Below, in pieces: positions 442 through 18,176 of a DNA stretch of 64,000 bases. Numbering within the stretch: the stretch's first letter is position 1; every line of letters starts with the position of its first letter. The notes beneath the pieces are model-generated. The model had not been told where the DNA came from. It saw only the letters and a list, made by a program, of their open reading frames with translations, and searched no databases. Source of the stretch: an uncultured Oscillospiraceae bacterium (lineage in GTDB: Bacteria > Bacillota > Clostridia > Oscillospirales > Oscillospiraceae); the NCBI GenBank assembly GCA_947623745.1, contig CANQHN010000008.1:1387-65386 (forward strand), read 5' to 3'. The position numbers were made by a program, and so were the translations under genes.

Positions 442-507
442 AGTTGACCTCCGAAGTTTTACTTATAGTTTTCCAAATAAATGGAGGAGGAATTGTTCGG
501 CGTTTCA

Positions 508-1458: not shown

Positions 1459-1480
1459 GATCAATGCCCTATAATTAAGG

Positions 1481-2239
1481 TCAGTATCCTAAACTGAAGG
1501 TTTCATAATTCTTTTTGAGGCCCTTTGCCAGCATATCCAAATCATACCCGATAAGCATAATTCGTACACCCTGGTTCCAGAGTTCCTGTGCACGTTGCCT
1601 GTTGGGGACGAGTATGGCGGGGGTTTTACCAGCGGCTAAAACCTTTTTTATAATGCGATTTTCCTGCTCGAAGACGGCAGCGCTGGTGTTCTGTCCCAAA
1701 AGGCCCATAGACTGAGAGAGATCACCTCTCCCTGTGGCAATCATATCCACACCGTCCAACTTCAGAATCTCATCCAGATTACGGATACCAGACAGACTTT
1801 CTATCTGTAGAGTGACTGTGACATTCTCATTGGCATCGGAAAGGTAAGGGACAATTGAATCTATACCAAACTTATTTTCAGGCATCATGCTGTACATGCC
1901 CCGCATTCCACACGGGGCATATTTTGTGTATTTTATGACCTCCTTAGCTATCTCAGGAGTATCCACATTGGGACACACTATACCGTTGGCTCCCATGTTG
2001 AGAATTTTGGTGATGTCGGTGACACTGGAAACGCGGACTTCTGTCCTCAAACCACACAGTCTGGCAATTCTCAGCATATCGCCCAGTTTATCATAACTGA
2101 ATGTGTGATGTTCCATATCTATCCGAATGAAATCATAACCAGAGGCTGCGGCCAGTTCAATCACTGTTGGATCCGGCAGTACAATGTACAATCCAAGGTA
2201 TGGAGTGTCTCGCTGGGCAATTATTTCCTTGAGCTTCAT
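1481..2239 (-). CDS. HpcH/HpaI class II aldolase family protein
   Basis: GYDFIRIDMEH, ILNMGANGIVCP, LQIESLSG, GRGDLS motifs; start reassigned to ATG 2239 with GGAG RBS. Confidence 0.85.
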   Translation of the reverse strand: MKLKEIIAQRDTPYLGLYIVLPDPTVIELAAASGYDFIRIDMEHHTFSYDKLGDMLRIARLCGLRTEVRVSSVTDITKILNMGANGIVCPNVDTPEIAKEVIKYTKYAPCGMRGMYSMMPENKFGIDSIVPYLSDANENVTVTLQIESLSGIRNLDEILKLDGVDMIATGRGDLSQSMGLLGQNTSAAVFEQENRIIKKVLAAGKTPAILVPNRQRAQELWNQGVRIMLIGYDLDMLAKGLKKNYETFSLGY

Positions 2240-2269
2240 TGTAAACTCCTTTTTACACAAATGTAAGGA

Positions 2270-2286
2270 GCTTTGTTCTATCACAA
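2270..2286. promoter_or_regulatory. Operator candidate GCTTTGTTCTATCACAA, copy 1
   Basis: Identical 17-mer at 2508-2524 in the same divergent intergenic region. Confidence 0.5.
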
Positions 2287-2507
2287 TCAGCAATATATCA
2301 TAAGAAAGATTCCTTTTCAAGTAAGACACTCAGAGGCGACAAATCGTCATTGAAGTCGAGCTTTTTTTGATGGCTGAAAAAATTGCACGTGTTAATTAGC
2401 ATATGGAGGAAAAGAAACTTTTTGAGCAAAATAAAATAATATTTGTATGTAATACCACAATTATTTGTTTGATTTTGACATAATTTAAAGCTACCCTATT
2501 ATTGGGT

Positions 2508-2524
2508 GCTTTGTTCTATCACAA
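2508..2524. promoter_or_regulatory. Operator candidate GCTTTGTTCTATCACAA, copy 2
   Basis: Identical to 2270-2286; contains TTGT-N6-ACAA dyad. Confidence 0.5.
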
Positions 2525-2567
2525 GACTGAGCACATCAATTAATTTATACTAGAAAGGAAGAGAGAC

Positions 2568-3665
2568 ATGAAAAATCTGAAAAAGATTGTAGCGTTTATC
2601 CTCTGCCTGAGCATCGTGGCGGTGTTCATGACCGCCTGTGGCCAGGCTAGCCCCAGCGCTGCGGCCTCCAACCCAGGGCCGGTATCAAGTTCCACCACTG
2701 ATGAACAAACCAATAAGCCCGCATCCGAAGATGGAGAGGTAGATTTGACTCAGGGTGACAAAGTCACGCTGAGATTTGCTACGGACCTAATTGACGCTAA
2801 CCCTGGCCAGCTTGCTTTGAACGATATTTGCGATGAGATATCTGAGCTCACCGGTGGCCGTATCACCATTGAGATGTACGGCAACTCACAACTGGGTACT
2901 GCCCCCGAGCAATTAGAGCAGTGCAATAATGGACTTATCGATATGCACTATGCTACTGGTATCTCTAACTATTGCCCGGAGTACGGCGCGTTGCAGCTCC
3001 CCTATATGTTCATGAACTATGATCATGCCAGAGCAGTGTTCACCGGCGAGATTGGCGAGTACTTCAAGCAACTTGTCGCTGACAACACTAACATGTATGC
3101 CATCCAGTTTGGTGCTATCGGCTACCGGAATCTAACAGCCAACAAGCTGATAAAGACCCCCGATGATATGAAAGGCTTGAAGATTCGCACGAGAGAGATA
3201 CCTGCGGATGTAGCCGCCTTTGAAGCACTCGGCGCTGTTCCCACGCCTATGGCTTTCTCCGAACTGTATACGGCACTGCAGCAGGGCACTGTTGATGGGC
3301 ATGATAACACGGTCACTGTTATCTTGAACAATAACCTCGATAGCGTACAGAAATACATCTACCTCAGCGAGCACACGCTGGATTCGGGAATCATTGTCAT
3401 GAACAAAGATTCTCTGGACAATCTATCTGAGACTGATCGTGAATTCATCCTCAGCGAGTTTGGCACTATGCTAGAGCGCAGCATCGCTAAGACGGAAGCC
3501 TCCGAAGAAGATGTGCTCCAGCAGATTATTGATAGGGGAAATGCTGAGGTCATCAGAGATTTTGACAAGCAGGCGTTTGCAGATGTCATGCGCACCATCT
3601 ATGTGGATTATGAGGAAGCTTATGGAAAGGAACTTCTGGATAGCATTGTCAACTGCGAATACTGA
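2568..3665 (+). CDS. dctP: TRAP transporter substrate-binding lipoprotein DctP
   Basis: Lipobox (FMTAC), DMKGLKIR, PTPMAFSELYTALQQGTVDG. Confidence 0.92.
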   Translation: MKNLKKIVAFILCLSIVAVFMTACGQASPSAAASNPGPVSSSTTDEQTNKPASEDGEVDLTQGDKVTLRFATDLIDANPGQLALNDICDEISELTGGRITIEMYGNSQLGTAPEQLEQCNNGLIDMHYATGISNYCPEYGALQLPYMFMNYDHARAVFTGEIGEYFKQLVADNTNMYAIQFGAIGYRNLTANKLIKTPDDMKGLKIRTREIPADVAAFEALGAVPTPMAFSELYTALQQGTVDGHDNTVTVILNNNLDSVQKYIYLSEHTLDSGIIVMNKDSLDNLSETDREFILSEFGTMLERSIAKTEASEEDVLQQIIDRGNAEVIRDFDKQAFADVMRTIYVDYEEAYGKELLDSIVNCEY

Positions 3666-3762
3666 TATCAATATGGTCTAGCAAAAATGTTGTCCTCTTC
3701 AATTCAACTAGTTGAAAAAAGACGATACCTCTGACTTCTATTAATAGAAAGGGGGAATCTAT

Positions 3763-4227
3763 TTGTTTAAAATTTTTGATAAGTGCCTAAAGACTGTTCT
3801 GGCCCTCATGGGCCTTACGATGATCGTCGTTGGCTTTATGCAAGTGTTTTGGCGTTATGTGCTTCACCACTCGCTGACTTGGTCGGAGGAACTGCTCCGT
3901 TATCTTTTCGTCTGGATTGTACTCGTGGGTGCACCCACGGGCATACCGACCGGATCACATGTATCGTTTGACTTAATACAGAAAAAAATACCGAATAAAT
4001 ATCACGGGTATTACCAGATATTTCTGTATGTATTAATCTTGGCCGGGTTCATGTTCATGGCAATCTGGGGTATGCCTTATGCGCTATCAAACTTTGATCA
4101 TGTTTCCCCCGCCATGCAGATCCCGTTCGGTTGGGTCATACTTGCTGTCCCGGTGGGCGGAATAGTTGGCATCGCGTATACCGTATACGCAATTACGCAA
4201 CAGGTGAAAAAGAACAGGGAGGTGTGA
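3763..4227 (+). CDS. dctQ: TRAP transporter small permease DctQ
   Basis: QVFWRYV...LTWSEELLRYLFVW, 4 TM segments, between dctP and dctM. Confidence 0.9.
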   Translation: MFKIFDKCLKTVLALMGLTMIVVGFMQVFWRYVLHHSLTWSEELLRYLFVWIVLVGAPTGIPTGSHVSFDLIQKKIPNKYHGYYQIFLYVLILAGFMFMAIWGMPYALSNFDHVSPAMQIPFGWVILAVPVGGIVGIAYTVYAITQQVKKNREV

Positions 4228-4228
4228 T

Positions 4229-5512
4229 ATGTCGACTGCCGCGATTCTCCTTATCGTTACAATGCTGGTATTCATGTTCTTAGGTGCGCCGATTTATCTC
4301 GCCATACTCTTTGCAAGCGTGGCCAGCGCGTTTGTCAAGGGCATCGATCCGTCCATCATCATACAGCGCATGTATGCCGCAAATGACAGCTTCTCCCTGC
4401 TGGCTGTCCCGTTCTTCTATATGGCGGGTGACCTGATGGTTCAGGGGGGTATTGCTAGGCGCCTTGTCGCTCTGGCAAAAAGCCTGCTGGGCCGCCTGAG
4501 AGGTGCGCTCACCATTATCGACTTTGTAGCCTGTGCTTTTTTTGGCGCTATCAGCGGCTCATCTTATGCTACCACTGCCTCAATAGGAAAGCTGATGTAC
4601 CCTGAGATGCTGCATGACGGCTATGAAAAAGGTTTTGCTGCAGTGCTCCAAGCTGTGGGAGGTACGTTGGGAGTACTTATACCGCCAAGTATTCTATGCG
4701 TTCTGTATGGCGTTGCAACGGGTACCTCCGTTGGCGATATGTTACTGTATATCGCACCTGTGGGTATAGCTACCACCCTGGCGTATATCCTTACGGCACA
4801 AGTTATGATTACCGACAAAAAGAAGGGCTATTACGACACAAGCAAAGAGAAAAAAACGGAGATTTCTAGTAAAGATATTTGGGTAAGCTTAAAGGATGCC
4901 TTTTGGGCCATACTCTCCCCGGTAATCATCCTGGGCGGTATCTATTCCGGCGTCTGCACTCCCACAGAATGTGCGGCCATCGCCTGTGTCTATGCGCTGG
5001 TCATTGGACTGTTCGTATATAAGGAACTCAATTTCAAGATCATATTTAGGTCAATAATGAGTTCGATTCTTGGTACTGCCTGCGTGACGCTGATATTTGA
5101 TTCCGCCACAGCATTCAGCTATATGATGACAGTTAACCGTATCGCCGCAAGCGTGGCTAGTTGGGTCAACAGCACGATGTCCTCCGTGGTGGTATTCTGG
5201 CTTATGGTCAATTTGGTGTATGCAATTGCCGGCATGTTTGTCGAGGGTAGCGTCACCATTACTGTCATTACACCACTGCTCTTCCCGATTGCTATGTCCT
5301 TTGGTATCAATCCTGTACACTTCGGGGTGGTTACGATTCTAAACTGCATCATAGGGACACTTACACCGCCCTTTGGCGGCGCACTTTTCATTGCCTCTAG
5401 TGTGACGGAGGTTCCAGTGACAACCTTGGTCAGGCGTGTCTGGCCATTCGTACTTGCCGGCTTTGCCCTGTGCCTAGCTATCACCTATGTGCCGTTCGCA
5501 TGGCTATACTGA
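4229..5512 (+). CDS. dctM: TRAP transporter large permease DctM
   Basis: LLAVPFF, FFGAISGSS, LIPPS, GTLTPPFG motifs; 427 aa hydrophobic. Confidence 0.93.
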   Translation: MSTAAILLIVTMLVFMFLGAPIYLAILFASVASAFVKGIDPSIIIQRMYAANDSFSLLAVPFFYMAGDLMVQGGIARRLVALAKSLLGRLRGALTIIDFVACAFFGAISGSSYATTASIGKLMYPEMLHDGYEKGFAAVLQAVGGTLGVLIPPSILCVLYGVATGTSVGDMLLYIAPVGIATTLAYILTAQVMITDKKKGYYDTSKEKKTEISSKDIWVSLKDAFWAILSPVIILGGIYSGVCTPTECAAIACVYALVIGLFVYKELNFKIIFRSIMSSILGTACVTLIFDSATAFSYMMTVNRIAASVASWVNSTMSSVVVFWLMVNLVYAIAGMFVEGSVTITVITPLLFPIAMSFGINPVHFGVVTILNCIIGTLTPPFGGALFIASSVTEVPVTTLVRRVWPFVLAGFALCLAITYVPFAWLY

Positions 5513-5569
5513 GTTACTCTGAACAAATTGGGGAGCACGCAGAGCGGGATAAAAGGAAAGGAGTATATT

Positions 5570-6331
5570 ATGGCGAAATATAAGATTTATCCTATCAGAT
5601 TAGGTATGCAGGAGGCCCGGGACAAGTCTGGCGGTACTTATCTCCAGAACTCTGGGGTGAAGGTGCCTTCGGCTATTATGGGATTCGTTATAGCCGGTGA
5701 AGGACGGCATATTATGGTCGACGTGGGCTGTGGACCAGCCCAGTGGAGCATTGAAAAACATAATTTTCATCTAACAGAGTGGTATCCATTGCCCGAGGCA
5801 CTAGAAAAGGCCGGCTTCAGTGTAAAGGACATCGACGCCGTGGTCCTGACCCATCTACACCACGACCACTGCTGGAATCTAGCAGACATTCCAAATGTGC
5901 CGGCCTATGTCCAGAAGGAAGAGGTACTCTTCGCCCTGGACCCGTTGCCTTATCAGTGGTACTACTATGAGGTGGCCCAGGTGGGAATGACACCTAGATG
6001 GTATGCGGAAATGTACCGCTTCAAGTATGTTGAAGGAGATTACGAGATATTTGACGGTATAAAACTCATTAAATTCTGCGGACATACTGCCGGTTCCCAG
6101 GGCGTCCTGGTAGACACGGAGTCGGGCAGGATTCTGATTGCCGGCGACACCGTGAATCTTTACGACAACTGGGAAGGAAAGGGCGTGTGGAAACACATCC
6201 CCAATACGATACACATCAACGTCGAGGATATGTACAAAGATTTTGAAAAGATAGAAGCTCTCAACTGCACACATATTCTACCAGGCCATGATATCCGCGT
6301 TCTCGACCACAAAGTATACCCCGTAGAATAA
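5570..6331 (+). CDS. Metallo-beta-lactamase-fold hydrolase (AHL-lactonase-like family)
   Basis: THLHHDH, GHTAGSQ, AGD, PGHD metal ligands; AAGGAG RBS before ATG 5570. Confidence 0.85.
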   Translation: MAKYKIYPIRLGMQEARDKSGGTYLQNSGVKVPSAIMGFVIAGEGRHIMVDVGCGPAQWSIEKHNFHLTEWYPLPEALEKAGFSVKDIDAVVLTHLHHDHCWNLADIPNVPAYVQKEEVLFALDPLPYQWYYYEVAQVGMTPRWYAEMYRFKYVEGDYEIFDGIKLIKFCGHTAGSQGVLVDTESGRILIAGDTVNLYDNWEGKGVWKHIPNTIHINVEDMYKDFEKIEALNCTHILPGHDIRVLDHKVYPVE

Positions 6332-6492
6332 TACTGCCTGAGTCCGTAAATTGTAAATCCCATGTGCTTTATGCTGCTTAACATAGATGAGCGCCTGCGC
6401 ATGGGATTTTTTTCGCCAAAATTGCCGCCCACATGGTAAAAACAATATGTTTACACTATAAAAAAGTTGTAGAAATAACGGAGGACAAGTAG

Positions 6493-7659
6493 ATGCAGAG
6501 TTTTACTTACAATACCCCCACACGAATGGAGTTTGGCCCTGGAAAAGAGAGCGAAGTCGGCGCACTACTGAAGGAATTTGGAGCGAAGAAGGTCCTGATA
6601 CACTACGGAGGCGGCAGTGCTGTTAGAAGTGGCTTGCTGGACAAAGTGACTGAGTCTGTGAGGAGTATCGGTCTGGACTATGTGAAAAAGGGTGGTGTAC
6701 AACCTAACCCGCGTCTATCCGAGGTTCGTGAGGCGATAGACCTGTGCAGAGCGGAAAAGGTGGACTTTATTCTTGCCGTTGGCGGCGGCAGTGTGATTGA
6801 TGCCTCCAAGGCGGTGGGATATGGGTTGGCCACCGAACGAGATATTTGGGACTTTTTCGTTGGAGAAGCGGTACCAACCGCCTCCTATCCTGTAGGCTGT
6901 ATCCTTACGCTGTCAGCTGCCGGCAGTGAGATGAGCAATTCCTGCGTCATTACAAATGACATTACTGGGCAGAAACGTGCCTGTGACAACGAATACGGCA
7001 GGCCGAAGTTTGCAGTGTTGAACCCGGAGCTTACATATTCCCTTCCAGCATATCAGACCTCCTGCGGTTGCGCTGACATTATCATGCATACCCTTGAACG
7101 CTATTTCCACAACGGCACCACACTGGATATCACCGACGGCATAGCTCAGTGTCTCCTACGCAACATGATGAAAGTTGCTCAGGAAGTACTCGAAAAACCT
7201 AACGATTACAACATAAGAGCCGAAATCATGTGGTGTGGTAGCCTCTCCCACAATGGTCTCACAGCATGTGGTGGAGGAAATGGTGACTGGGCCGTGCATC
7301 TGATTGAACATGAACTAGGTGGAAAATATGACGTCGCTCATGGCGCAGGACTCACGGCAGTATGGGGCACTTGGGCGAGGGCTGTCTGTTCCAAGCACAA
7401 GGAGCGCTTCATCAAATTGGCAAAGACTGTGCTTGATGTGGAACTTGACGGGGATGAAGCTGTAGAAGAGGGAATTCACCGTATGGAGGAATTCTTCCGC
7501 TCCATCAATATGCCTGTCTCTATCCGCGACCTTGGGATCAATCCAACGGACGAGGATCTATGGGATATGGCCAAAAAATGTACGAGATATGGCAGCGTAG
7601 GTGGTATGGAGCCGCTAGACGAGGTCGGAGTATACGAGATATACAAAACAGCGCTATGA
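6493..7659 (+). CDS. Iron-containing alcohol dehydrogenase (BdhA-like)
   Basis: GGVQPNP, AVGGGSVIDASK, AAGSEMS, HLIEHELG...HGAGL. Confidence 0.9.
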   Translation: MQSFTYNTPTRMEFGPGKESEVGALLKEFGAKKVLIHYGGGSAVRSGLLDKVTESVRSIGLDYVKKGGVQPNPRLSEVREAIDLCRAEKVDFILAVGGGSVIDASKAVGYGLATERDIWDFFVGEAVPTASYPVGCILTLSAAGSEMSNSCVITNDITGQKRACDNEYGRPKFAVLNPELTYSLPAYQTSCGCADIIMHTLERYFHNGTTLDITDGIAQCLLRNMMKVAQEVLEKPNDYNIRAEIMWCGSLSHNGLTACGGGNGDWAVHLIEHELGGKYDVAHGAGLTAVWGTWARAVCSKHKERFIKLAKTVLDVELDGDEAVEEGIHRMEEFFRSINMPVSIRDLGINPTDEDLWDMAKKCTRYGSVGGMEPLDEVGVYEIYKTAL

Positions 7660-7829
7660 GATGAGTATTTCTAGCACGAAAAAGATCTTCGCTCTGGAAA
7701 AAATGCGGTAGATAGGCATGAAGAATATATTTGAACTACAAGGGAAAATGTAAAGTATAAGAACGCTTTCCCCTTTTTCCACAACTGCATCCATTCCGCC
7801 GACCCAACGGCCCTCGAATAAACTTGCGG

Positions 7830-7858
7830 TTGAATTTTGCATGGTATTAAGATATACT
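7830..7858 (+). promoter_or_regulatory. Sigma-A-type promoter for the HipA-like gene
   Basis: TTGAAT-17-TATACT. Confidence 0.5.
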
Positions 7859-7938
7859 GTGTATTGAAAAACCGCGATGATAAGGCCAATTTCGACCTGT
7901 GAATTGTGGTGAAGCACCACGAGAGAGGGGGGGCCAGA

Positions 7939-9051
7939 ATGCTGCGGCCAAATATGAGTAACCACTATGTCCTGCTGAACCGGGACGAGCCGGTACTGGA
8001 TTTCCTATGTCGCAGGAATGAGTTCAACGAGCCGGAGTTCTTTGAACTCCAGTGGCATACGGATATCCGGCCCATTGGCTACCTTAACCTGGACTCCTTC
8101 TTGGAGCGCCGAAAAGCGCCAAAGCACCGCCGACATATCCAGCAGCTTCTAGAGCAATACGGCTGCGACGACCTAGAGGGCTTTATCCAGGTCACTTACG
8201 CGCTCTCCCTCAACGACACCTTTTGGGTGCGTCAGGATGGTTCGCCTATGGCCTGGACTGACATCTCCCTCTACACCAACGATTTCAGTGAATTAATCAG
8301 CCAGGCCGCCTTTGACGGGACGGTCAGCGAGACGGACCTGTCCTCTACCTCTCCAGAGTTTGGAACGGACGGCTACTACGCCAAGTGCTGGGTGCGGGAG
8401 GAGTCCGGGATCTGTCTTTATAAGAGCGGCAGCGCTTACTATGAGATTGAGCCCCTATCCGAGTTCCTGGCCTCTCAACTGGCAGCGGAGCTGTGTCCCC
8501 AGGCGGTCCGCTATGACATGGGCTGGTACCATGGAAAGCTCATCAGCAAATGCCCTCTGTTTACCAGCGAAGCGGTGGGACTGGCCAAGGCCAGCGCGGT
8601 GTTCGGCGGCGTTGAGCACACCATCCCGGAACTGTTGCGCTACTTCACCGAGATTGGCAGCGGGGATGCCTTCCGGCGTATGTGTGTGCTGGATGCATTG
8701 ATTCTGAACCCGGACCGGCACTATGGGAATTTCGGTGTGCTGTTTGACACCGAGACTATGGACGTCCTGGGGATGGCCCCGGTGTTTGACCACAACAGGA
8801 GCCTGTTCCCGGAGCTGGACAACGACCAGCTGGCATCGCCGGAGCGGTATCTGAACCACTGTCGGCCCCGGCTGGGCGCGGACTTCCTGCTGACGGCCAG
8901 GGGACTGCTGACCGAGGAAATCCGCAGGGACCTGGAGCGGCTGGACGGCTTCACCTTCCGCCAGCACCCCACCATCCATGCCGAGCAGGAGCGTCTGGAC
9001 GCCCTGAGCGCCATCGTCCAGAATCAGATCCGAAAAATACTGGACAAGTGA
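7939..9051 (+). CDS. HipA/CtkA-like kinase domain protein
   Basis: GTDGYYAKCW, LYK, DALILNPDRHYGNFG, APVFDHNRSL kinase motifs; start 7939 or 7954. Confidence 0.75.
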   Translation: MLRPNMSNHYVLLNRDEPVLDFLCRRNEFNEPEFFELQWHTDIRPIGYLNLDSFLERRKAPKHRRHIQQLLEQYGCDDLEGFIQVTYALSLNDTFWVRQDGSPMAWTDISLYTNDFSELISQAAFDGTVSETDLSSTSPEFGTDGYYAKCWVREESGICLYKSGSAYYEIEPLSEFLASQLAAELCPQAVRYDMGWYHGKLISKCPLFTSEAVGLAKASAVFGGVEHTIPELLRYFTEIGSGDAFRRMCVLDALILNPDRHYGNFGVLFDTETMDVLGMAPVFDHNRSLFPELDNDQLASPERYLNHCRPRLGADFLLTARGLLTEEIRRDLERLDGFTFRQHPTIHAEQERLDALSAIVQNQIRKILDK

Positions 9052-9137
9052 TTATAAAGAGGACCGACACCGCGAGAGCGGTGCCGGTCCTTCCTTTATA
9101 TATTGTTACTCATCGGGGCTAAGTGGGACCCATCCGC

Positions 9138-9770
9138 TTACCGAATAAAGTTAGTGGACTGCCGCGGCTCCTTTTCCGGCAGCCCAAATTTCTCTTTGCC
9201 TAGGGCGATGCTCCGCATCAGGAAGGTCATGTTCCAGGCCAGGGTCCGCATGGTCTGCTTGCCCTCCTCGTCCATCTCGGCGTCGCCCTTGTCCAGACCG
9301 TGGATGGAGTTCCAGTACTGGCTGGAGGCGATGGGCATCCCGCTGATGGTGAAGAACTTGTTCAGCTCATCAAAGGTGGCGGAGCAGCCGCCCCGGCGGG
9401 CGCAGGCGATGCTGGCCCCCACCTTCATGGTCTTGTCGAAGGGCGTGCTGTAGAACAGACGGGTCAGACACGCCACCAGTGTGGCGTTGGCGGAGGCATA
9501 GTAGACCGGGGAGGCCACGATCAAACCGTCGGCGGCCTCGAACTTGGGGGCCAGCTGCTGGTTCACCACGTCGTCAAACACACACTTGCCCCGCTCGAAG
9601 CAGGTGTTGCAGCCGATGCAGCCGCGGACGGCCATGGCGCCGACTTGGACGGTGTCCACCTCCACGCCGCTCTCGGTGAAGATGTGCTCCAGCTCTCTGA
9701 CAGCGATCGAGGTGTTCCCATTCGCACGGGGACTTCCATTGATGATAAGGACCTTCAACTTTTCAGACAT
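9138..9770 (-). CDS. Flavodoxin family / iron-sulfur flavoprotein
   Basis: INGSPRANGNT, CIGCNTC...C, ASPVYYAS, RRGGCS. Confidence 0.88.
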   Translation of the reverse strand: MSEKLKVLIINGSPRANGNTSIAVRELEHIFTESGVEVDTVQVGAMAVRGCIGCNTCFERGKCVFDDVVNQQLAPKFEAADGLIVASPVYYASANATLVACLTRLFYSTPFDKTMKVGASIACARRGGCSATFDELNKFFTISGMPIASSQYWNSIHGLDKGDAEMDEEGKQTMRTLAWNMTFLMRSIALGKEKFGLPEKEPRQSTNFIR

Positions 9771-9912
9771 TTCAAAACTTCCTCTCTCAGTTATCTGTCC
9801 GGCAAAACAGGTTGGATTCAGCTTACCGCATTCCAGGGGCAAAGTCAAGCCGCACGGATACGCCGCGCTGTGCAAACTCCTGATGGGCGGCAGGGTCAAC
9901 GGCGGCCCACAG

Positions 9913-10887
9913 TCAGGACCTGATCAGCCAGTCGGAAAACTCCTCCAGGGTGATCTCGCCGTCGTCGCACCGCTGTTTCTCCCGCCGGGCCTGTTCGCTC
10001 CAGGTGTAGAACTCCTCCTGGGTGACCCGCCCAGCCTTGATCCAGGCAAAGCGCTTCTTGTATTCCCGGCGGTAAATCTTGAAAATTTCGTCGCTGCTGC
10101 GCTTCCGGGTCCATTGGGCGATAGAACCCACATCCTTACAAGTGCGGCCCTTGTTGTCAATGACCCGGTCACAGTACTCCGCGCTGCTCCGGCCCAGGAT
10201 GGCAAACCAGCGGCCGCAGTTTTTGCACACCCGCATCCGTACCTCACGCCGGACACACTCCCGCAGAGCGTAGTCGGCCAGGTCATAGATGGTCTTGGGA
10301 TACAGAACCTCGGTAAAGGTCTCCTCGTCGATGGCCTCGAAACAGAGAGGCAGCGGCTGGAACTGGAAGGTGTGCAGTGTGTCCTCCCCATGGGCGCGGT
10401 AGTATGCCGCCATCCGTTTGGAGACAGACCTTTTTTCGCTGATACCGTCTATGTCCAGTACGGCGGCGAACAGGTTCCTGATCTGCTTCTGCATCGTGTC
10501 AATATTGCTGGGAATGTGCGAGATCTCCTTGTGGGGCAGCAGGTCCTGGACGGTTTCATACTTCTGCCTTTGGGCCTGCTCCAGACGGTGGGTCCAGTCC
10601 AGGCGCAGGAATTGAAAATAGATGTGCACCGGCGCCAGCTCATCCAGAACAGACTGGACCTCCACTGCCCATGCCTCGTCCCGGCTGCTGTACAGGCTGA
10701 GCAAAGCGCGGTCCATCTTTTTGAACAGCGGCTCCAGCGCCCAGATATCCAAGTCAAGAAATGCCATCAGACTTTCCGGAAACGGGAAGTCTTTTTTTAT
10801 TTCCGCATCGCCGCTGATCTCCTGTTCCCCAAACAGGAAGTACTCCTTGCCTTCGGAGATGTAGGTTCGAAATGTGTAACCGACCAT
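9913..10887 (-). CDS. Zn-finger protein of Firmicutes mobile elements (DUF6076-like)
   Basis: CKNCGRWF...YCDR...TC near C-terminus; GGGGAGG RBS before ATG 10887. Confidence 0.6.
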   Translation of the reverse strand: MVGYTFRTYISEGKEYFLFGEQEISGDAEIKKDFPFPESLMAFLDLDIWALEPLFKKMDRALLSLYSSRDEAWAVEVQSVLDELAPVHIYFQFLRLDWTHRLEQAQRQKYETVQDLLPHKEISHIPSNIDTMQKQIRNLFAAVLDIDGISEKRSVSKRMAAYYRAHGEDTLHTFQFQPLPLCFEAIDEETFTEVLYPKTIYDLADYALRECVRREVRMRVCKNCGRWFAILGRSSAEYCDRVIDNKGRTCKDVGSIAQWTRKRSSDEIFKIYRREYKKRFAWIKAGRVTQEEFYTWSEQARREKQRCDDGEITLEEFSDWLIRS

Positions 10888-10930
10888 AGTATCCTCCCCT
10901 GGAATAGACCAAGCGTAAAATATTTTTAAA

Positions 10931-11003
10931 TTTAGTCTTGACAAAACAGCGGAGTAGAGTTAGACTAAAGACAAACCATAATTCTAATATGGTATTAGTC
11001 TAA
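10931..11003 (+). promoter_or_regulatory. Promoter of the rep gene with repeated TTAGTCT/AGACTAA boxes
   Basis: TTGACA(10938)-17-TAGACT(10961); boxes at 10931-10938, 10960-10969, 10995-11003. Confidence 0.6.
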
Positions 11004-11024: not shown

Positions 11025-12053
11025 ATGACAAGTTTGACACAAGGGCAGAAAAACCTGCACACCATCGACGCAGACACCCTCACCGCCACACCGCTGCCTG
11101 CGTTGCGGTATGTGGTGGACCAGCTGATTCCTCAGGGGCTGCACATCCTGGCGGGCGCACCAAAGGTGGGAAAGTCCTGGCTGGCCCTGTGGCTGTGTCT
11201 CCAGGTGGCCGAGGGAAAACCGGTGTGGGAGTTCCCCACAACACAGAGCACCGTGCTCTACCTCTGCCTGGAGGACAGCTACACAAGGATCCAGCGCCGG
11301 CTGTTCCAGCTCACCGAGGACGCCCCCGCGACACTCCACCTGGCCAACCTCTCCGAGCGCATCGGCAGCGGACTGGAGGATCAGATCAGGCAGTTCCTCC
11401 GGGAGCATACGGACACGGCTCTGGTGGTCATCGACACGCTGCAAAAGGTCCGGGGAGCGTCGGTGGACTCCAGCGCCTACGCAAGCGACTACCGCGATCT
11501 CTCAGCACTGAAGCAGCTGGCCGATGAACAGCGCGTGGCGGTCCTGCTCATCCACCACCTGCGCAAGACCGCAGACGAGGATCCGCTGAATATGATCTCC
11601 GGCACGACGGGCATCAGCGGCGCAACCGACTCCAGCTTCGTGCTGAAGGGTCAGCGGGGCAGCCGGTCGGCGACCCTCTACTGCACCGGCCGGGACATCG
11701 AGTACCGGGAGCTGCCGCTCTGGTTCTCTGGAGAGACACACACCTGGGAGCTGACCGAGCAAGCGGAGGAGGAGCAGGAGCCCGTGGACCCAAAGCTGGT
11801 TTCCCTCTCTGAATTTCTCAAAGCCCTCTCCATCTTCGACGGAACGGCTACGCAGCTCAGCGAGCTGTGGGAGCGACAAAAAGGAGAACAGATCACGCCC
11901 AGCGTTCTGGCCAAGCGGATGGTGCGGTACGCCGGAGAACTGGAGAGCGAGGGCATCCACTTTACCACCAGTCGGACGCGGGAAGTACGGCATATCCACA
12001 TCCAGTGTGACGGGAGTGACGGCAGTGACGGGAAAAATAGGACAGGGGCCTAG
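11025..12053 (+). CDS. AAA_25/RepA-like helicase-type ATPase
   Basis: Walker A GAPKVGKS, LVVIDTLQ, LLIHHLRK, ISGTTGISGATD. Confidence 0.8.
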   Translation: MTSLTQGQKNLHTIDADTLTATPLPALRYVVDQLIPQGLHILAGAPKVGKSWLALWLCLQVAEGKPVWEFPTTQSTVLYLCLEDSYTRIQRRLFQLTEDAPATLHLANLSERIGSGLEDQIRQFLREHTDTALVVIDTLQKVRGASVDSSAYASDYRDLSALKQLADEQRVAVLLIHHLRKTADEDPLNMISGTTGISGATDSSFVLKGQRGSRSATLYCTGRDIEYRELPLWFSGETHTWELTEQAEEEQEPVDPKLVSLSEFLKALSIFDGTATQLSELWERQKGEQITPSVLAKRMVRYAGELESEGIHFTTSRTREVRHIHIQCDGSDGSDGKNRTGA

Positions 12054-12100: not shown

Positions 12101-12233
12101 GGCGGAAGATCATGCAGTGTTTTGAGGTAAAATTTCCACCGTGTAATATGAACAAATTAGAGGCCTTGGACCGGGGGAGCGATTGGTACGGGTTTCGTTT
12201 GAGCAGAAAGCCAGCATCGCGTTTGTCTGGACA

Positions 12234-12260
12234 TGGGGCGGCCGCCCCAGCCCTGCCAAA
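12234..12260 (+). other. Candidate oriT (palindrome plus nic-like site)
   Basis: Perfect 16-bp palindrome TGGGGCGGCCGCCCCA followed by GCCCTGCCAAA, upstream of mobC. Confidence 0.45.
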
Positions 12261-12311
12261 CACCGTTTTGCGGGGCGCTGCCCCACACCCGGTAGGACGG
12301 AGGGGAAGATT

Positions 12312-12650
12312 ATGAGAAGGAAGGACACCACATTCAGCATCCGGATCTCGACTGAGGACCTGGAGATCATCAAGCAAAAAGCGGAGCAGGCGCACCTGTC
12401 TCAGAGCGACTACGTCACCCGCTGCTGTCTCGGCCGGCAGGTGGTGGTCATTGACGGACTCAAAGATGTGCTGAAACAGCTGCGGGCCATCGGCAACAAC
12501 CTGAATCAGTTGGCGGTGCTGGCCAATATGGGCCGGCTCAAGCTGGTGGGCCTGGAGAAAACCGCGCGGGAGCTAGCCGGCATCGGCGCTGAACTGCGGG
12601 AGCTCCAGGAGCGGGGGAGGTGGCCGGAATATCAATCATCCATTTCGTGA
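12312..12650 (+). CDS. mobC: MobC relaxosome accessory protein
   Basis: RHH-like N-terminus; LRAIGNNLNQLA MobC signature. Confidence 0.88.
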   Translation: MRRKDTTFSIRISTEDLEIIKQKAEQAHLSQSDYVTRCCLGRQVVVIDGLKDVLKQLRAIGNNLNQLAVLANMGRLKLVGLEKTARELAGIGAELRELQERGRWPEYQSSIS

Positions 12651-13969
12651 ACGCACCCAAGGGACAGAGCCGAGACGGCATGGCGGGAGTTATGCGGTAC
12701 GCAGAGGGGGAGGAGAAAACCATGTGGAAGGGTCAGCGATTGGTGAGCGGATACAACTGTCGGCCGGAGAGTGTCTACGACGACTTCATGCGCACAAAGC
12801 TGCTCTACCACAAGGCGGACGGGCGGATGTACTACCACATGGTCCAGTCCTTCCCCAAGGACGCGCAGGTGGATCCAGTCCAGGCTCATGCGGCGGCGCT
12901 GAAGCTGGCGGAGTGGTTCAAAGACCGGGAGGTGCTGGTCTGTACCCACATAGACCGGGAACACATCCACTCACACTTCGTGATCAACAGTGTCAGCTTG
13001 GAGGATGGGAAGAAGCTGCACATCGCGGACCCGGAGCTGGAGGAGCTGAAAAAACTCAACGACCAGATCTGTCTGGAGTTCGGTCTGCCAGTGTTCCAGC
13101 CACAGGAGAAGAAGCGGCGCAAGACCGTCTCCAACGCGGAGTATCACTCAGCGGTCAAGGGCGAGAGCTGGAAGTTCCGTCTGATGAACACCATCGACAG
13201 CTGCATGAAGTACGCGGGAAACCGTGACGAGTTCATCTCCCTGATGCGCGGCGAGGGGTACGACGTGAAGTGGACCGACACGCGAAAGAACATCACCTAC
13301 ACCACGCCCGAGGGCAAGAAGTGCCGGGACACGAAACTGCACGACGAGAAATATGGAAAGGAGGTCATGGAACGTGAGTTCAGAATTCGACAAGAGATTA
13401 TCGCTGGAGGAGCTGAAGCGGTTGAATCAGCCGCAGGCACAGCCGCCGGAGATGCTGGATATGGAACCCACCGCGGAGGAGACACATCCCACTGCCGAGG
13501 AGTGGGAAGAACTGTTGGCCTGCATCAGCGCTCAGTACAAAGTGACGATGGCGATATACGACTGGACGAAACGGCAGTGGGTGAGCGCGGAGCTGGACAG
13601 CATGGAGAAGCAGCTGGAGGAACTGACGCAGGAAGTGAAGCTGGTCAGCGAGACGCTGGAACAGGTTGGGAAGAAGAGAGAGCGGCGTTTCTCAATTCCC
13701 AGGATCACGCTTCCCCGCATACCGCTGCCTCACCTGGACGGGTTCGAGTGGTTCTGTCTGCTGACAGTGCCGCCAGCCTTGGGAGTGCTCTGGTGGAGCT
13801 TGGGAAAACTCTCGAGCGCTCTGGCGATGATACTCCCGTGAGGGACAGCACCACGATGCCCGGTCACGCCGACCGCAAGACCTTGGCCAGGGAGAGGGAG
13901 AAGAAGATCGCCATGGGCCACAAGCCGGACGACCATGAGGACCAGCCTACCTGGCAGCAGACCATGTGA
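12620..13969 (+). CDS. Relaxase/mobilization nuclease (MOBP-type)
   Basis: YYHMVQSFP and THIDREHIHSHFVINS HUH motif; GTG start overlapping mobC. Confidence 0.88.
   Translation: MAGISIIHFVNAPKGQSRDGMAGVMRYAEGEEKTMWKGQRLVSGYNCRPESVYDDFMRTKLLYHKADGRMYYHMVQSFPKDAQVDPVQAHAAALKLAEWFKDREVLVCTHIDREHIHSHFVINSVSLEDGKKLHIADPELEELKKLNDQICLEFGLPVFQPQEKKRRKTVSNAEYHSAVKGESWKFRLMNTIDSCMKYAGNRDEFISLMRGEGYDVKWTDTRKNITYTTPEGKKCRDTKLHDEKYGKEVMEREFRIRQEIIAGGAEAVESAAGTAAGDAGYGTHRGGDTSHCRGVGRTVGLHQRSVQSDDGDIRLDETAVGERGAGQHGEAAGGTDAGSEAGQRDAGTGWEEERAAFLNSQDHASPHTAASPGRVRVVLSADSAASLGSALVELGKTLERSGDDTPVRDSTTMPGHADRKTLAREREKKIAMGHKPDDHEDQPTWQQTM
13374..13841 (+). CDS. Overprinted coiled-coil protein with C-terminal TM helix, inside the relaxase gene
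   Basis: +1 frame ORF; AAGGAGG (13358-13364) 9 nt before GTG 13374; heptad-like SMEKQLEELTQEVKLVSETLEQ; hydrophobic tail. Confidence 0.6.
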   Translation: MSSEFDKRLSLEELKRLNQPQAQPPEMLDMEPTAEETHPTAEEWEELLACISAQYKVTMAIYDWTKRQWVSAELDSMEKQLEELTQEVKLVSETLEQVGKKRERRFSIPRITLPRIPLPHLDGFEWFCLLTVPPALGVLWWSLGKLSSALAMILP

Positions 13970-14028
13970 ATAAATCAAAGGGAAAAACAGGAAACTAGGA
14001 CGGCCCGAGGAAGGAGGAGGATAACGTC

Positions 14029-14304: not shown

Positions 14305-14530
14305 ATCACTGAATTTGAAAACAACCGCAAGACAGCGGACGGCGCGGAGGGCGCGCCGCCCCTGTCCTGCGCCTGAGATACATATGCGCAGACGGCCTGT
14401 GCTGCGCCCGATGATATTGTGCTGTCTTTTTTCAAATTCTGGTTGCGTTTTGAAAAAGGCTGTGATACAATATTATCTGCAAATACAAAACGAAAACGAA
14501 AATATATTGATAGAACAAGGAGGCGACTGC

Positions 14531-15562
14531 ATGGGGCATGAGTTGATGCCAAGCGGGGAGATCCTGCTGTACAGCAGCGACACCGATAAGGTGTACGTGG
14601 ATGTGCTGTTCAGCGAGGAGACCTTCTGGCTGACGCAGAAATCGATGGCGGAGCTGTTCGGCTGTACGGCCGACAACATCTCCCAGCACCTGAAGAACAT
14701 CTATGAGGAAGAGGAGCTTTCAGCGCAGGCAACTACCGAGAAATTCTCGGTAGTTCGAAAAGAGGGGGCGAGGGACGTCCGCCGCACCCTGGACTTCTAC
14801 AACCTGGACGCCATCATCGCTGTGGGCTACCGGGTGAACTCCAAGAAGGCCACCCGGTTCCGCCAGTGGGCCACCAAAACGCTGAAAGAGTACATCCAGA
14901 AAGGCTTCGTCCTCAACGACGAGCTGATGAAGAACGGCCGGCCCTTCGGGAAGGACTACTTCGACGAGCTGCTGGAGCGCATCCGGGAGATCCGCGCCAG
15001 CGAGCGCCGGGCCTATCAGAAGATCGCGGACATCTTTGAACAGTGCAGTTACGACTACGACAAGAACAGCGAGACCACAAAGGCCTTCTACGCCTTCGTC
15101 CAGAACAAGCTCCACTTCGCCGTTACGGGAAAGACGGCGGCGGAGCTCATCAGCGAGCGCTCTGACCTGGACAGCCCCACCATGGGCCTGACCACCTGGA
15201 AGGGCGCGCCGGACGGGAAGATATTAAAGAGCGACACGCTGGTGGCAAAGAACTACCTGAATGAAAAGGAAATCTCCCGGCTCAACCGGCTGGTCACCAT
15301 GTTCATCGACTACGCCGAGCTGATGGCGGAGGACGAGCAGCTGATGAGTATGCAGGACTGGCTGGACGAGACGGACCGGTTCCTGACTAACAACCGCCGG
15401 AACGTGCTGGAGGGCAAGGGCAGCATCTCCCGCGACGAGGCGGTAAAAAAGGTGAGCGAGGTCTATGAGCAGTTCCGCAGGCGGCAGGACGCGGCGTACA
15501 TCTCCGAGTTCGACCGCCAGGCGGCCAGATATCTCAAGGGCGAAGGAGGCGGAGAAACATGA
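14531..15562 (+). CDS. rhuM: RhuM family protein
   Basis: WLTQKSMAELF, YNLDAIIAVGYRVNS, RIREIRASERR, VQNKLHFA. Confidence 0.88.
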   Translation: MGHELMPSGEILLYSSDTDKVYVDVLFSEETFWLTQKSMAELFGCTADNISQHLKNIYEEEELSAQATTEKFSVVRKEGARDVRRTLDFYNLDAIIAVGYRVNSKKATRFRQWATKTLKEYIQKGFVLNDELMKNGRPFGKDYFDELLERIREIRASERRAYQKIADIFEQCSYDYDKNSETTKAFYAFVQNKLHFAVTGKTAAELISERSDLDSPTMGLTTWKGAPDGKILKSDTLVAKNYLNEKEISRLNRLVTMFIDYAELMAEDEQLMSMQDWLDETDRFLTNNRRNVLEGKGSISRDEAVKKVSEVYEQFRRRQDAAYISEFDRQAARYLKGEGGGET

Positions 15563-17715
15563 TCGAGCGCTATGACATCGCCGGCTACTGCCGCATCTCC
15601 GTGGACGAGGAGCTGGACCGGGACAATGTGTCCATCGAGAACCAGAAGGCCATCATCGAGGACTTCGTGAAGCAGCGGTTCCCCAACAGCACCCTCACCT
15701 TCTACGAGGACCGGGACCGCTCGGGCTACACCTTCGAGCAGCGGGAGGGTTATCAGGCCATGCGCCGGGGGCTGATGTCCCACAAGTACGACATCCTGGT
15801 GGTGAAGGACTTCTCCCGGTTCTCCCGGCGCAACAGCCGGGGGCTGGTGGAGCTGGAGGACCTGCGGGACGCAGGGGCCCGGATCATCTCCATCGGGGAC
15901 GGTATCGACTTCCCCAACGACGACGACTGGCTGAAGATCCAGTTCCAATTCCTCATCAACGAGATGCCGGTGACCGACACCAGCAAGAAGGTGAAGTCGG
16001 TCATCAAGCGCCGGCAGAAGGACGGCAAGTGGATCTGCGCCGCCCCCTACGGCTACATCGTCAACAAGCGCCAGGAGTTTGAGCTGGTACCCACCGAGGC
16101 GGAGGTGGTGCGGGAGATCTTCCGGCTCTACCTGGACGGGTGGGGCTACAAGAAGATCGCCAACTACCTCACAGACCAGAAGATCCCCACCCCCCGCATG
16201 TCGGAGCGGGAGCGGAAGGAGGCCGCCGGAGAGGACAGCCGCCGGGTGGCCAAGCAGGCCTGGGCCATCGCCACAGTCCAGGGTATCCTGGACAACGACT
16301 TCTACATCGGCACCCTGCGCCAGGGCAAGTACACCCGGAAAAAAATCAACGGCAGCGAGGAGAAGCGGGACGAGACGGAGCACCTGGTGTTTGAGAAGCA
16401 CCACCAGGCGATCATCGACTACCGCACCTTCGCCACGGTCCGGGCCCTGCGGGACAAGCGCTCCACCGCCCACTACCGGGGAGTGAAAAAGAACGAGAAC
16501 GTGTACTCCGGGTTCCTGGAGTGCGGCGACTGCGGCTCCCCCATGTTCGCCATGAGCCGCGCCGACTTGAAGGACGCCTACCGCTGCGGGCTGTACCACC
16601 GCCGTGGCCTGAAGGCCTGCACCAGCCACCACATCCGGGTGGACAAGCTGGATGAGCTGCTCAAGCTCTATGTCCGTAAGGTCCGGGACAGCTCCACGGA
16701 GATGCTGGAGCGGCTCAACTCCGACCTGACCAGGGAGGCGCAGGATGTGGCCGAGACGGAGCAGAGCGCGGCCAATCTGGAGGCGGTGCTGGCCGACCTC
16801 CAGGAGGAGCTGAAAATCACCAAGCGCCAGCGGGTCCGGGACCTGATGAAGCACCCGGGTCAGGAGAGGACCCTGGAGGAGACCTACGACGAGTTGGAGA
16901 GCGACCTGCTGCGGCGCATCGACGGCCTGCAGAACCAGATCCAGATGACGGTGGACAAGCGCAACACCATCATCCGGGTCAACCGGGCGGCTAGGACGGC
17001 GCTGGAGGTGTTCGACGACATCCTGAGCAAGGACAAACTGGACCGGAATGACCTGGAGCTCATCATCGAGAAGATCAAGGTCTACGAGGACCACCTGGAG
17101 ATCCAGCTGAAACCGGACGTGGACAGCCTGCTGCGCTGTGGGGAGCTCCCGGGGGAGAACGCCGCAAATTTTAACTCGGGCATGGGAGATATCGAGCCTG
17201 TCACCATCGTTCAGGGGTCGGAAAAGCACCTGGACAAGGTCTTTCATGCCAATATTATCAGTGACGGTGACCCGCTGGAGATATTCACAGATAAGGACGG
17301 CGGCGTGATTTTTAAGAAGTATTCCCTGATGGGCGGGCTGACGGAGTTTGCCGGCCAGCTGTGCGACTCGCTCAACCGCACCACCGGCGAGGTGGCGGTG
17401 ATCACCGACCGGGACAACTGCATCGCCGTGGCGGGCAACGCCCGGCGGGAGCTGCAGGACAAGCGCATCTCCCCCGAGCTGGAGCGGCTGATGGAGGGCC
17501 GGCAGATCTACCAGCACAAGTCCGGCGCCGAGCGCATCCCGCTGTGCGCCGAGGACGGCTCCCACTACGTGTGGACCGCCGCCCCCATCCTGTCCGAGGG
17601 GGACGTGCTGGGCTGTGTGCTGTTCACCGGCAGCGGGGAGAACGACGGCAGCGAGGTGGACTACAAGCTGGTCCAATCCACGGCGGGATTCCTCGGCCGC
17701 CACATGGAGAGCTGA
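15559..17715 (+). CDS. Large serine recombinase fused in frame to the SpoVT C-terminal 149 aa
   Basis: YCRIS...DRSG...DFSRFSRR catalytic domain, APYGY recombinase domain, CGDCGSPM Zn ribbon, coiled coil, then GDPLEIFTDKDGGVIFKKYS...AAGFLGRHMES-like SpoVT tail. Confidence 0.88.
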   Translation: MIERYDIAGYCRISVDEELDRDNVSIENQKAIIEDFVKQRFPNSTLTFYEDRDRSGYTFEQREGYQAMRRGLMSHKYDILVVKDFSRFSRRNSRGLVELEDLRDAGARIISIGDGIDFPNDDDWLKIQFQFLINEMPVTDTSKKVKSVIKRRQKDGKWICAAPYGYIVNKRQEFELVPTEAEVVREIFRLYLDGWGYKKIANYLTDQKIPTPRMSERERKEAAGEDSRRVAKQAWAIATVQGILDNDFYIGTLRQGKYTRKKINGSEEKRDETEHLVFEKHHQAIIDYRTFATVRALRDKRSTAHYRGVKKNENVYSGFLECGDCGSPMFAMSRADLKDAYRCGLYHRRGLKACTSHHIRVDKLDELLKLYVRKVRDSSTEMLERLNSDLTREAQDVAETEQSAANLEAVLADLQEELKITKRQRVRDLMKHPGQERTLEETYDELESDLLRRIDGLQNQIQMTVDKRNTIIRVNRAARTALEVFDDILSKDKLDRNDLELIIEKIKVYEDHLEIQLKPDVDSLLRCGELPGENAANFNSGMGDIEPVTIVQGSEKHLDKVFHANIISDGDPLEIFTDKDGGVIFKKYSLMGGLTEFAGQLCDSLNRTTGEVAVITDRDNCIAVAGNARRELQDKRISPELERLMEGRQIYQHKSGAERIPLCAEDGSHYVWTAAPILSEGDVLGCVLFTGSGENDGSEVDYKLVQSTAGFLGRHMES
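17266..17715 (+). pseudogene. spoVT: 3' part of interrupted spoVT (end of AbrB-like domain plus GAF domain)
   Basis: GDPLEIF..D..VIFKKYS, ITDRDNCIAVAG, APILSEGDVLG, STAGFLGRHMES follow the known SpoVT sequence from about residue 31; the MKATGIVRR N-terminus was not found in the window. Confidence 0.82.
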
Positions 17716-17718: not shown

Positions 17719-17997
17719 TGTCCAAAAAGGCCACAGGCCTTTTTGGACAAAGGGTGCGGCCTGCGGCAGCGCGCGTCGTCGCAAGCTCCATATCCTTCAC
17801 TTCCGCCTGCGGCGAAAGCTCACTCATTACGCTGCTCCTCCTTTCCCAGCCGAACCCGCTGCGCTGGGCTTCGGCCGGGGCCCCATTTTGCTCGCACGTT
17901 TGCAGGCCGAGAGGAATTTTTCCCGACGTACGCGCCGCCGGGAAAAATGAATCATATTATATTCGCGCCTGCGGGCGCGAACTCTGCGAGGCTTTTC
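17719..17997 (+). repeat. Palindrome-rich dispersed (MITE/REP-like) repeat, copy 1
   Basis: 17890-17997 matches the reverse complement of 20268-20375 with few mismatches; extra hairpins upstream (17719-17749). Confidence 0.75.
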
Positions 17998-18005
17998 AAG
18001 CAGAT

Positions 18006-18033: not shown

Positions 18034-18176
18034 ATGAAAATTTATCGGTTTCAGGCAAAAAAGTGGTTGTCAGTTTGACGGCTTTGCGGTATAATGGCTA
18101 ACAGCATGTAATATTGCCCGCTGTGTCCTTCGGCGGCGGGCGGACAATAGGTATCAACATAAGGAGTGGAACGACT

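Follow-up and report, generated by a model that had tools for sequence, protein, structure and literature searches.

An in-frame recombinase-SpoVT fusion of gut Oscillospiraceae, read as the attR junction of an integrative mobilizable element that may excise in the forespore

In a 64,000-nucleotide stretch of DNA from an uncultured Oscillospiraceae bacterium of a rabbit gut metagenome (contig CANQHN010000008.1; the whole stretch is called the window hereafter), the gene of a large serine recombinase (LSR) runs in frame into the 3' part of the sporulation gene spoVT. This 718-codon open reading frame (ORF) appears to be the right-hand junction (attR) of an integrative mobilizable element that its LSR drives and that is present here in integrated form. 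We regard the structural part of this reading, that is, a site-specific, precise and reversible insertion in spoVT codons 31-34, a recombinase gene that spans attP, the formation of two chimeric ORFs, spread by horizontal transfer and the presence of genes for mobilization, as very nearly certain. Excision of the element in the forespore is plausible, with a probability that we put slightly under one half. The attR junction taken together with forespore-timed excision and re-integration is the best explanation found for the whole, and we give it an even chance.

The ORF at 15559-17715 (+) encodes a complete LSR that passes into residues 34-180 of SpoVT. Pfam recognizes Resolvase at residues 7-158 (PF00239, profile positions 1-145 of 145, with the catalytic Ser14 within YCRISVDEE), Recombinase at 178-301 (PF07508), Zn_ribbon_recom at 316-369 (PF13408) and SpoVT_C at 594-717; the LSR also matches PHROG 95, 'integrase' (E = 2.7e-90), and its coiled coil is hinted at only indirectly, by a helical low-complexity stretch at residues 375-500. 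Positions 27-180 of the TIGR02851 profile (spore_V_T) align to residues 567-717 with a score of 123.5, far under the cut-off of 235.9 because the N-terminal domain is missing, and the AbrB-like N-terminal domain PF04014 was not matched in the fusion by Pfam. An earlier note, made from the letters of the window, had described a recombinase ORF devoid of a stop codon of its own that switches to SpoVT at 17263-17271, which proved correct: the switch reads KVFHANIISD/GDPLEIF, the GDP codons begin at 17266, and 149 SpoVT-derived residues follow. The SpoVT part is 89-91% identical to intact 180-aa SpoVTs (P0001-P0003) and covers the GAF-like SpoVT_C domain as well as, from the AbrB-like domain, beta3-beta4. 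The LSR of the window lacks its native last 24-28 codons, which are located at the left end of the element, outside the window. As the note had said, no SpoVT N-terminus is encoded in the window (six-frame tblastn and motif search of the 64 kb), and a dedicated search found no copy in it of the C-terminal tail described below. The features of the junction are as follows.

15559..17265, + strand: LSR, element-encoded part of the ORF, aa 1-569, Ser in YCRIS(14)
17266..17715, + strand: host spoVT 3' part; codons 31-33 (GDP) common to the element, codons 34-180 host
17241..17295, no strand: attR, with element-side arm ATTATCAGTGAC, core GGTGACCCG (17266-17274) and spoVT-side arm CTGGAGATATTCAC; the extent of the arms is taken from the attP inverted repeat of contig L113

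A sigma70-like pair, TGGACA-16-TATTAT, is present at 17231-17258 (+) in the last LSR codons, facing the spoVT 3' fragment; it has 10 matches out of 12 and may be a chance match, the hexamers being poorer in relatives.

The identical 718-aa ORF was found on four contigs, three of them from three different ENA samples, and the junction is also spanned by contigs of other studies (X5 record 9, X8 record 27), so that the assembly artefact considered in the note can be set aside. The host flank carries SpoIIID (42143-42391, - strand), YabP (45156-45446) and DivIC, in agreement with the claim that the host keeps sporulation genes.

The four attachment sites were reconstructed from relatives. A complete element of only ~5.4 kb, in locus L053 of an uncultured Clostridiales genome, has both attL and attR: at its left end, spoVT codons 1-33 pass into 25 element-encoded residues (LQTTLTPWEQFCFGMLDLAKREGWG, followed by a stop), at its right end the LSR continues into spoVT codon 34, and the core common to attL and attR is GGTGACCC. 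The leftward extension proposed in the note to recover the first spoVT codons thus succeeded in this relative; it failed for the window itself, since several independent assemblies (L004, L007, L001) all end 1363 nt left of window position 1, just past Dak1 and Dak2 genes, a shared end point that hints at a repeat within the element or at a boundary there that varies among strains. The presence of the missing 5' part at the far end of the L053 element, together with the attL proteins presented below, bears out the claim that the element sits in spoVT. The comparison with an empty site, also proposed there, was possible in one species that has both alleles, an intact 180-aa SpoVT in L111 and L112 and the fusion in L109. 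On the right-hand side of GGCGACCCGTT, L111 and L109 share 99.97% identity along 3 kb, with identical downstream genes, whereas on the left-hand side they are no more alike than expected by chance.

In a few LSR relatives there is no fusion, and the protein closes with ISDGDP plus a tail, for example SQTTLAWWEQFSFGILNLEKRQGWDRTS and a stop. In the attP-form contig L113 the LSR ends in this tail, and an inverted repeat composed of ATCAGTGAC, GGCGACCC and GTCACAGAC, in this order, is typical of serine-integrase attP sites. The attB site corresponds to the highly conserved spoVT codons 31-34, with the core GG(T/C)GACCC(G), and attB, attL and attR have only an 8-11-nt core in common. In this arrangement, attP lies within the 3' end of the element's own recombinase gene; attR consists of the LSR minus its own last 24-28 residues, a conserved helix, joined to SpoVT 34-180, and attL of SpoVT 1-33 followed by the LSR C-terminal helix, giving a 57-61-aa peptide. 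The fusion is in frame because attP and attB both read Gly-Asp-Pro in the same frame, and since the geometry of the sites accounts for it, a function of the GAF domain need not be assumed. The insertion cuts spoVT within its DNA-binding domain, and the gene can be restored only by precise excision; the rebuilding of an intact gene was followed in silico only, the empty allele encoding an intact 180-aa SpoVT to which the part present in the occupied allele is 100% identical.

Two observations were made near attL. L101, L102 and L104 have the element-side half-site (GTTACAGACAATGTTGT) twice; the additional copy, ~150 nt inward of the left end (locus ~10240-10260), may be an accessory recombinase-binding site or a relic. 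In L106, a small element (7163-8674; 503-aa LSR, Mob_Pre, RepA_N) stands beside the attL of a spoVT element, just upstream of VTC and DUF4956 genes, and is absent from otherwise identical contigs.

A search with the attL ORF of L053 returned at least 120 clusters of 57-61-aa proteins with end-to-end coverage, named in databases 'AbrB family looped-hinge helix DNA binding protein'; one of these clusters, P0252, is present in 2344 blocks of the collection and on at least 1000 contigs. In the tail of these peptides, residues L38, W41, C45, M48, L51, R54, G56 and W57 are at least 90% conserved and substitutions elsewhere are conservative. Starting at W41, a comparison of L053 with L101 gives 12 synonymous changes against 1 that is non-synonymous. 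Such a pattern argues for a translated peptide under protein-level constraint. The AlphaFold2 (AF2) model of the tail is an alpha-helix at residues 40-55 (pLDDT 67), and Pfam matches the AbrB/MazE domain in the attL peptide over positions 1-28 of 48 only; on these two grounds we rejected, with moderate confidence, the idea that the tail rebuilds the AbrB beta3-beta4 hairpin and makes a complete small AbrB-like protein. Most simply, the tail can be read as the recombinase's native C-terminus, split off by integration.

The survey of LSR-SpoVT fusions that the note had called for revealed that fusion is the rule in this recombinase family. Among the 120 nearest 90%-identity clusters retrieved with the LSR part (77-100% identical to the query), 106 are ~720-aa in-frame fusions with the junction V[IV][SN][DNE]GDP/LEI[YF]. 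A scan of one genome per GTDB species gave 585 stretches that encode a relative, the best 80 of which were analysed: each covers residues 1-718 in full or lacks just a few at the ends, the fused ORF is uninterrupted in 79 and leaves its contig in the 80th, and the 79 complete species-level copies show no frameshift or stop in their spoVT 3' part. These best 80 belong to Oscillospiraceae and to Butyricicoccus, with cultured isolates among them. Cultured carriers occur in Flavonifractor (sp. An100), Dysosmobacter (D. segnis BX15), Lawsonibacter (L. celer NSJ-47), Pseudoflavonifractor, Butyricicoccus (B. pullicaecorum DSM 23266) and Anaerotruncus (A. colihominis GCA_002160445.1).

Comparison of the 106 fusions with one another gives 329 pairs in which the LSRs share at least 93% identity and the SpoVT parts at most 80%, down to ~50%. 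Conversely, the fused SpoVT part of P0238 is 100% identical to the intact P0072 of the same species. Being identical to the host allele and varying independently of the LSR, the SpoVT part is host DNA and not a domain of the element's own, and a true domain fusion travelling with the element was rejected for this reason. The family has moved recently and horizontally between genera, always into the same spoVT site. A literature search (spoVT with recombinase, integrase or intervening elements) found no published description of a spoVT-inserting family; the family is very widespread and apparently undescribed. In databases the fusion proteins are called 'stage V sporulation protein T', 'recombinase family protein' or 'stage V sporulation T C-terminal domain-containing protein' (e.g. 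P0180, P0210, P0231, P0169), and the first of these names is a mis-annotation of the junction ORF, because only profile positions 27-180 match and PF04014 is absent. One LSR relative, P0159 (L016-L018; 83% identical), ends in ISDGDASKILK and a stop, and unrelated genes and transposases come next, both spoVT and the usual tail being absent; it may be a secondary-site insertion or a decayed copy.

Excision by large serine recombinases needs a recombination directionality factor (RDF). The recombination operon of the window comprises, upstream of the LSR gene, the following features.

13968..13997, + strand: promoter-like motif GAATA-N17-GGAAACTA, sigmaF/G type; ends 31 nt upstream of the orf91 start codon
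14029..14304, + strand: orf91, candidate directionality or regulatory factor
14315..15562, + strand: RhuM-family protein; the called gene starts at ~14531, its stop overlaps the LSR start; optional operon member

Across the family, a conserved 80-91-aa protein, here orf91, is encoded directly upstream of the LSR (78 loci), with rhuM optionally between them (31 loci). Its relatives form 630 representative clusters, and its AF2 model has a pLDDT of 93.7. By position and conservation only, orf91 is a candidate for the directionality or regulatory partner of the LSR.

The only conserved DNA upstream of orf91 is G[ACT]ATA-N16/17-[AG]GAnAnTA, most commonly GAATA...GGAAAATA, with the family-wide form GnATA-N16/17-GGAAAaTA. 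This motif ends 21-38 nt before the orf91 start codon in 41 of 69 distinct loci; its background is 1.5e-5 per nt, the expectation is ~0.4% of regions, and shuffles gave 0.125 regions. Elsewhere in 3.6 Mb of related sequence the motif stands almost only in front of orf91 homologues, with one hit in front of an intact spoVT; promoters of spoVT in the hosts themselves are similar (GCATA-N16-GGATACTA, AAACAATA and the like). Mapped C. difficile sigmaF/G promoters share GnATA...G(G)nAAAnTA, as in spoVT (TGTATA...GGTAAAAATA), spoIIR (TGAATA...GGACATAAT) and CD2808 (TGTATA...GGAGAAAATA) (Table S6, PMC3789822), and a G immediately upstream of the -10 element is a hallmark of sigmaF (PMC3789822). A sigma70-type promoter for the recombination operon was sought at 13968-13997 and rejected, no match being present there. 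From its similarity to the sigmaF/G consensus, the motif suggests that the operon is read from a sigmaF/sigmaG-type promoter.

In B. subtilis, spoVT is sigmaG-dependent. In C. difficile its transcription is sigmaF/G-dependent, and a spoVT mutant makes no heat-resistant spores (PMC3789822). We propose that sigmaF/G would transcribe the orf91-(rhuM)-LSR operon in the forespore, and that the LSR, with orf91 as its possible directionality partner, would excise the element there, rebuilding spoVT when it is needed. The excised circle would stay in the non-dividing spore, and the LSR, again carrying its native C-terminus, would re-integrate it, a step needed because the forespore is the germ line. 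It is the conserved sigmaF/G-like motif before the operon that makes germ-line excision the more likely reading. A fuller version, in which this germ-line rearrangement (forespore excision, a circle in the spore, re-integration) rewrites the recombinase 3' end at each step, and in which the isoform reports and perhaps sets the direction of the next reaction, is tentative and rather unlikely.

Several points weigh against forespore excision, or limit the reading as a whole. Neither attB nor attP joints, nor loose ends at 17266, were seen in the rabbit-gut runs that hold the window sequence, at ~5x coverage and in contigs only. Excision in the forespore strips the germ-line chromosome of the element, so that re-integration or episomal carriage must be assumed. 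The sigma assignment is a likeness to a low-information consensus, and the -10 element has G and A where sigmaG promoters of B. subtilis have C and T. For orf91, searches of Pfam, PHROGs and PDB sequence profiles, and of the PDB with Foldseek, returned no family or fold match. The attL of the window's own element is outside the visible sequence. Finally, two species from host genera, Flavonifractor plautii and Oscillibacter valericigenes, have been described as not forming spores; a host of this kind could simply tolerate the insertion.

These last two species are also part of the case for passive insertion, the main competitor, which we consider somewhat less probable than forespore excision. 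Here spoVT would be a conserved, vegetatively dispensable landing site, lost or unneeded as a gene, from which no developmental excision takes place; the insertion would be tolerated or costly, the chimeras would be neutral, and the promoter would serve some other regulation. The att geometry fully accounts for an in-frame fusion under this view, the spread of the family is recent and horizontal, so that selection is not required to account for intact spoVT halves, one species has empty alongside occupied alleles, and the ~5x metagenome contigs show no excision joints. Passive insertion leaves aside a forespore-like motif that is fixed in position before the recombination operon throughout the family, as well as the spoVT 3' part free of frameshifts and stops in 79 of 79 complete species-level copies. 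Also against passive insertion, contigs of the attP form occur in nature, and every characterised element within a sporulation gene excises during development (PMC5595907, PMC5025042).

Alternatively, the chimeras might be functional, either because the GAF domain of SpoVT tunes or gates the LSR, or because the SpoVT(1-33)-helix peptide docks on LSR::SpoVT(34-180) via the site of the LSR C-terminal helix, rebuilding SpoVT activity while the element stays in place. Both chimeric ORFs are intact wherever examined, and a correct promoter assignment would place the synthesis of the two in the forespore; moreover, the activity of the Mx8 integrase is altered by a C-terminus changed upon integration (PMC6070905). 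We nevertheless hold this to be improbable. Near-identical LSRs are joined to SpoVT parts that are only 50-67% identical, which speaks against co-adaptation; the tail is modelled as a plain helix rather than as the hairpin, with the moderate confidence given above, and the attL peptide matches the AbrB/MazE domain in part only. The protein-level constraint on the tail, which would fit a functional chimera, can be accounted for just as well by the tail serving as the LSR's native C-terminus. The chimeric recombinase with a functional GAF domain that the note had offered is thus unnecessary, given the att geometry, and disfavoured by the independent variation of the SpoVT part. As for an assembly or binning artefact, or a stand-alone domain-fusion gene travelling with the element, the low coverage of the metagenome and a left end out of view leave it a negligible probability in the face of the same ORF in independent samples and studies, fusions in cultured isolates, a SpoVT part that goes with the host and not with the LSR, near identity with the empty-site chromosome to the right of the core, and host-type GC and flanking genes.

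Integration in spoVT with excision in the forespore remains our preferred reading, and the content of the element bears on its type. Its visible part is at least 17.3 kb long, continues past the left edge of the window, and holds, in addition to the recombination operon, the following.

1..9900, no strand: cargo part; left end (attL) outside the window
9913..10944, - strand: DUF6076 protein, also in several elements of the family
11025..12053, + strand: AAA_25 / DnaB_C-like (RepA-like) ATPase, putative replication or maintenance gene of the element
12183..12650, + strand: NikA/MobC-type relaxosome accessory protein
12620..13969, + strand: MobA/VirD2-type relaxase, mobilization

The cargo genes encode a LysR regulator, an HpcH-type aldolase, a DctPQM TRAP transporter, a metallo-beta-lactamase-fold protein, an Fe-alcohol dehydrogenase, a HipA-like protein and an FMN reductase, at a GC content of 43-59% compared with 63-70% for the host; TRAP cargo is likewise present in relatives L009 and L102. 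The note had set the element beside the prophage-like elements of mother-cell sporulation genes, and on this point it needs correction. Neither Pfam nor PHROGs detected any phage structural family (capsid, tail, terminase, lysis) in the element of the window, Mob genes are present, and only 7 relatives were found in IMG/VR, the one inspected being of Mob and primase type; a prophage was rejected on these grounds, and the element carries metabolic cargo or, elsewhere in the family, defence cargo. No type IV secretion system (T4SS) genes were found in the visible 17.3 kb, the left end being outside the window. Because it combines a MobC-type protein, a relaxase and a RepA-like gene with the lack of phage structural families, the element of the window, judged on these 17.3 kb, would be of the integrative mobilizable type. 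Some relatives have no relaxase at all (L053).

Other elements of the family carry TRAP transporters together with catabolic genes, and genes for defence against phages or plasmids are found in L012-L015, L109 and L053 (Wadjet JetABCD, Dnd phosphorothioation genes, GmrSD/HNH nuclease). In the window, downstream of the junction, a 113-nt inverted repeat (92% complementary; 17755-18002 and 20263-20375) is present on both sides of an EF-G paralogue (18114-20207), and the depth of 17755-17890 in metagenome contigs is up to ~50 times that of its flanks; it has the look of a MITE-like repeat that the host carries in multiple intergenic copies. A second low-GC mobile element occupies 48800-64000, directly after hpf (48203-48754), and continues past the right edge of the window. 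It has tandem LSR genes (52502-53875 and 53779-55095, both - strand), a Replic_Relax protein (60184-61236, - strand) and a T4SS coupling-protein-like ATPase (61252-63396, - strand).

The arrangement in spoVT resembles that of skin and its recombinase SpoIVCA in sigK of B. subtilis, and of skinCd, with its RDF CD1234, in C. difficile (PMC5025042): the LSR gene is at the element's edge beside the 3' fragment of the target, precise excision rebuilds an interrupted sporulation ORF, and the elements have little in common within the family beyond the recombinase. Unlike spoVT, which is expressed in the forespore, the target of skin is a mother-cell gene and its excision takes place in a cell line that is terminal; the recombinase gene of skin ends in a stop codon of its own, whereas here attP is inside the recombinase ORF, and the promoter motif is by sequence likeness of the forespore type, not of the sigmaE/K type. 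SPbeta, with SprA/SprB, in spsM and gin in gerE (PMC5595907) are further cases of LSR-mediated rearrangement of sporulation genes, developmentally timed by a small partner protein or a promoter, and gin shows that such elements need not be prophages. They differ in that their targets are mother-cell genes and no chimeric recombinase is made, while the spoVT family appears to be mobilizable, with metabolic or defence cargo, and spread across Oscillospiraceae genera. The spoVT element would work like the skin/SPbeta/gin class, except that the gene it interrupts does not belong to the mother cell.

In Firmicutes, integrative mobilizable elements that bear an LSR, such as Tn4451/Tn4453 (TnpX), combine it with a Mob relaxase, have no conjugation machinery of their own and form a circular intermediate; as here, their recombinase gene is at the element end. 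In TnpX elements target sites are many and GA-containing, and the joint of the circle creates a promoter. The element studied here differs from them by one highly specific site in spoVT and a swap of coding sequence. For the germ-line problem, a precedent is provided by phage phi10403S in comK of Listeria, where excision reportedly restores the regulator in surviving cells and is followed by re-integration ('active lysogeny'). That element is a prophage, its trigger is the phagosome and its behaviour is experimentally proven, whereas re-integration is only inferred here.

An attP within the integrase coding sequence is also found in Mx8 (IntP/IntX), where integration rewrites the 3' end of int and the new 3' end changes the behaviour of the integrase (PMC6070905 and references therein), and in the 'suicidal' archaeal integrases of SSV type, where integration splits the gene (PMC7253208). 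Those enzymes are tyrosine recombinases that target tRNA genes or other loci, whereas the spoVT family uses a serine recombinase; here, in addition, a folded host domain becomes the new C-terminus, and the reciprocal product is a host peptide joined to the C-terminal helix of the integrase. For the detached C-terminus of the LSR, the myxophage Mx8 is the closest precedent. An attP inside the integrase gene is otherwise known only from tyrosine integrases.

The characterised sporulation-gene elements are all in mother-cell genes, because the genome of the mother cell is discarded. A common family in a forespore gene, present in at least 79 species-level genomes and with attL peptides on thousands of gut-metagenome contigs, challenges this rule, and cultured carriers in Flavonifractor, Dysosmobacter, Lawsonibacter, Anaerotruncus and Butyricicoccus make the germ-line question directly testable. 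The 'SpoVT' label on junction ORFs hides both the interruption and the element, so that spoVT will be miscounted in surveys of sporulation gene content. Nature provides in this family a collection of serine integrases of high site specificity for which attB, attP, attL and attR are already defined, and an example of a serine integrase that exchanges its own C-terminus by its own reaction. If the proposal is true, it would represent a developmental DNA rearrangement in a bacterial germ line, and a mobile element could act as a switch for sporulation, hence for transmission, in major gut Oscillospiraceae.

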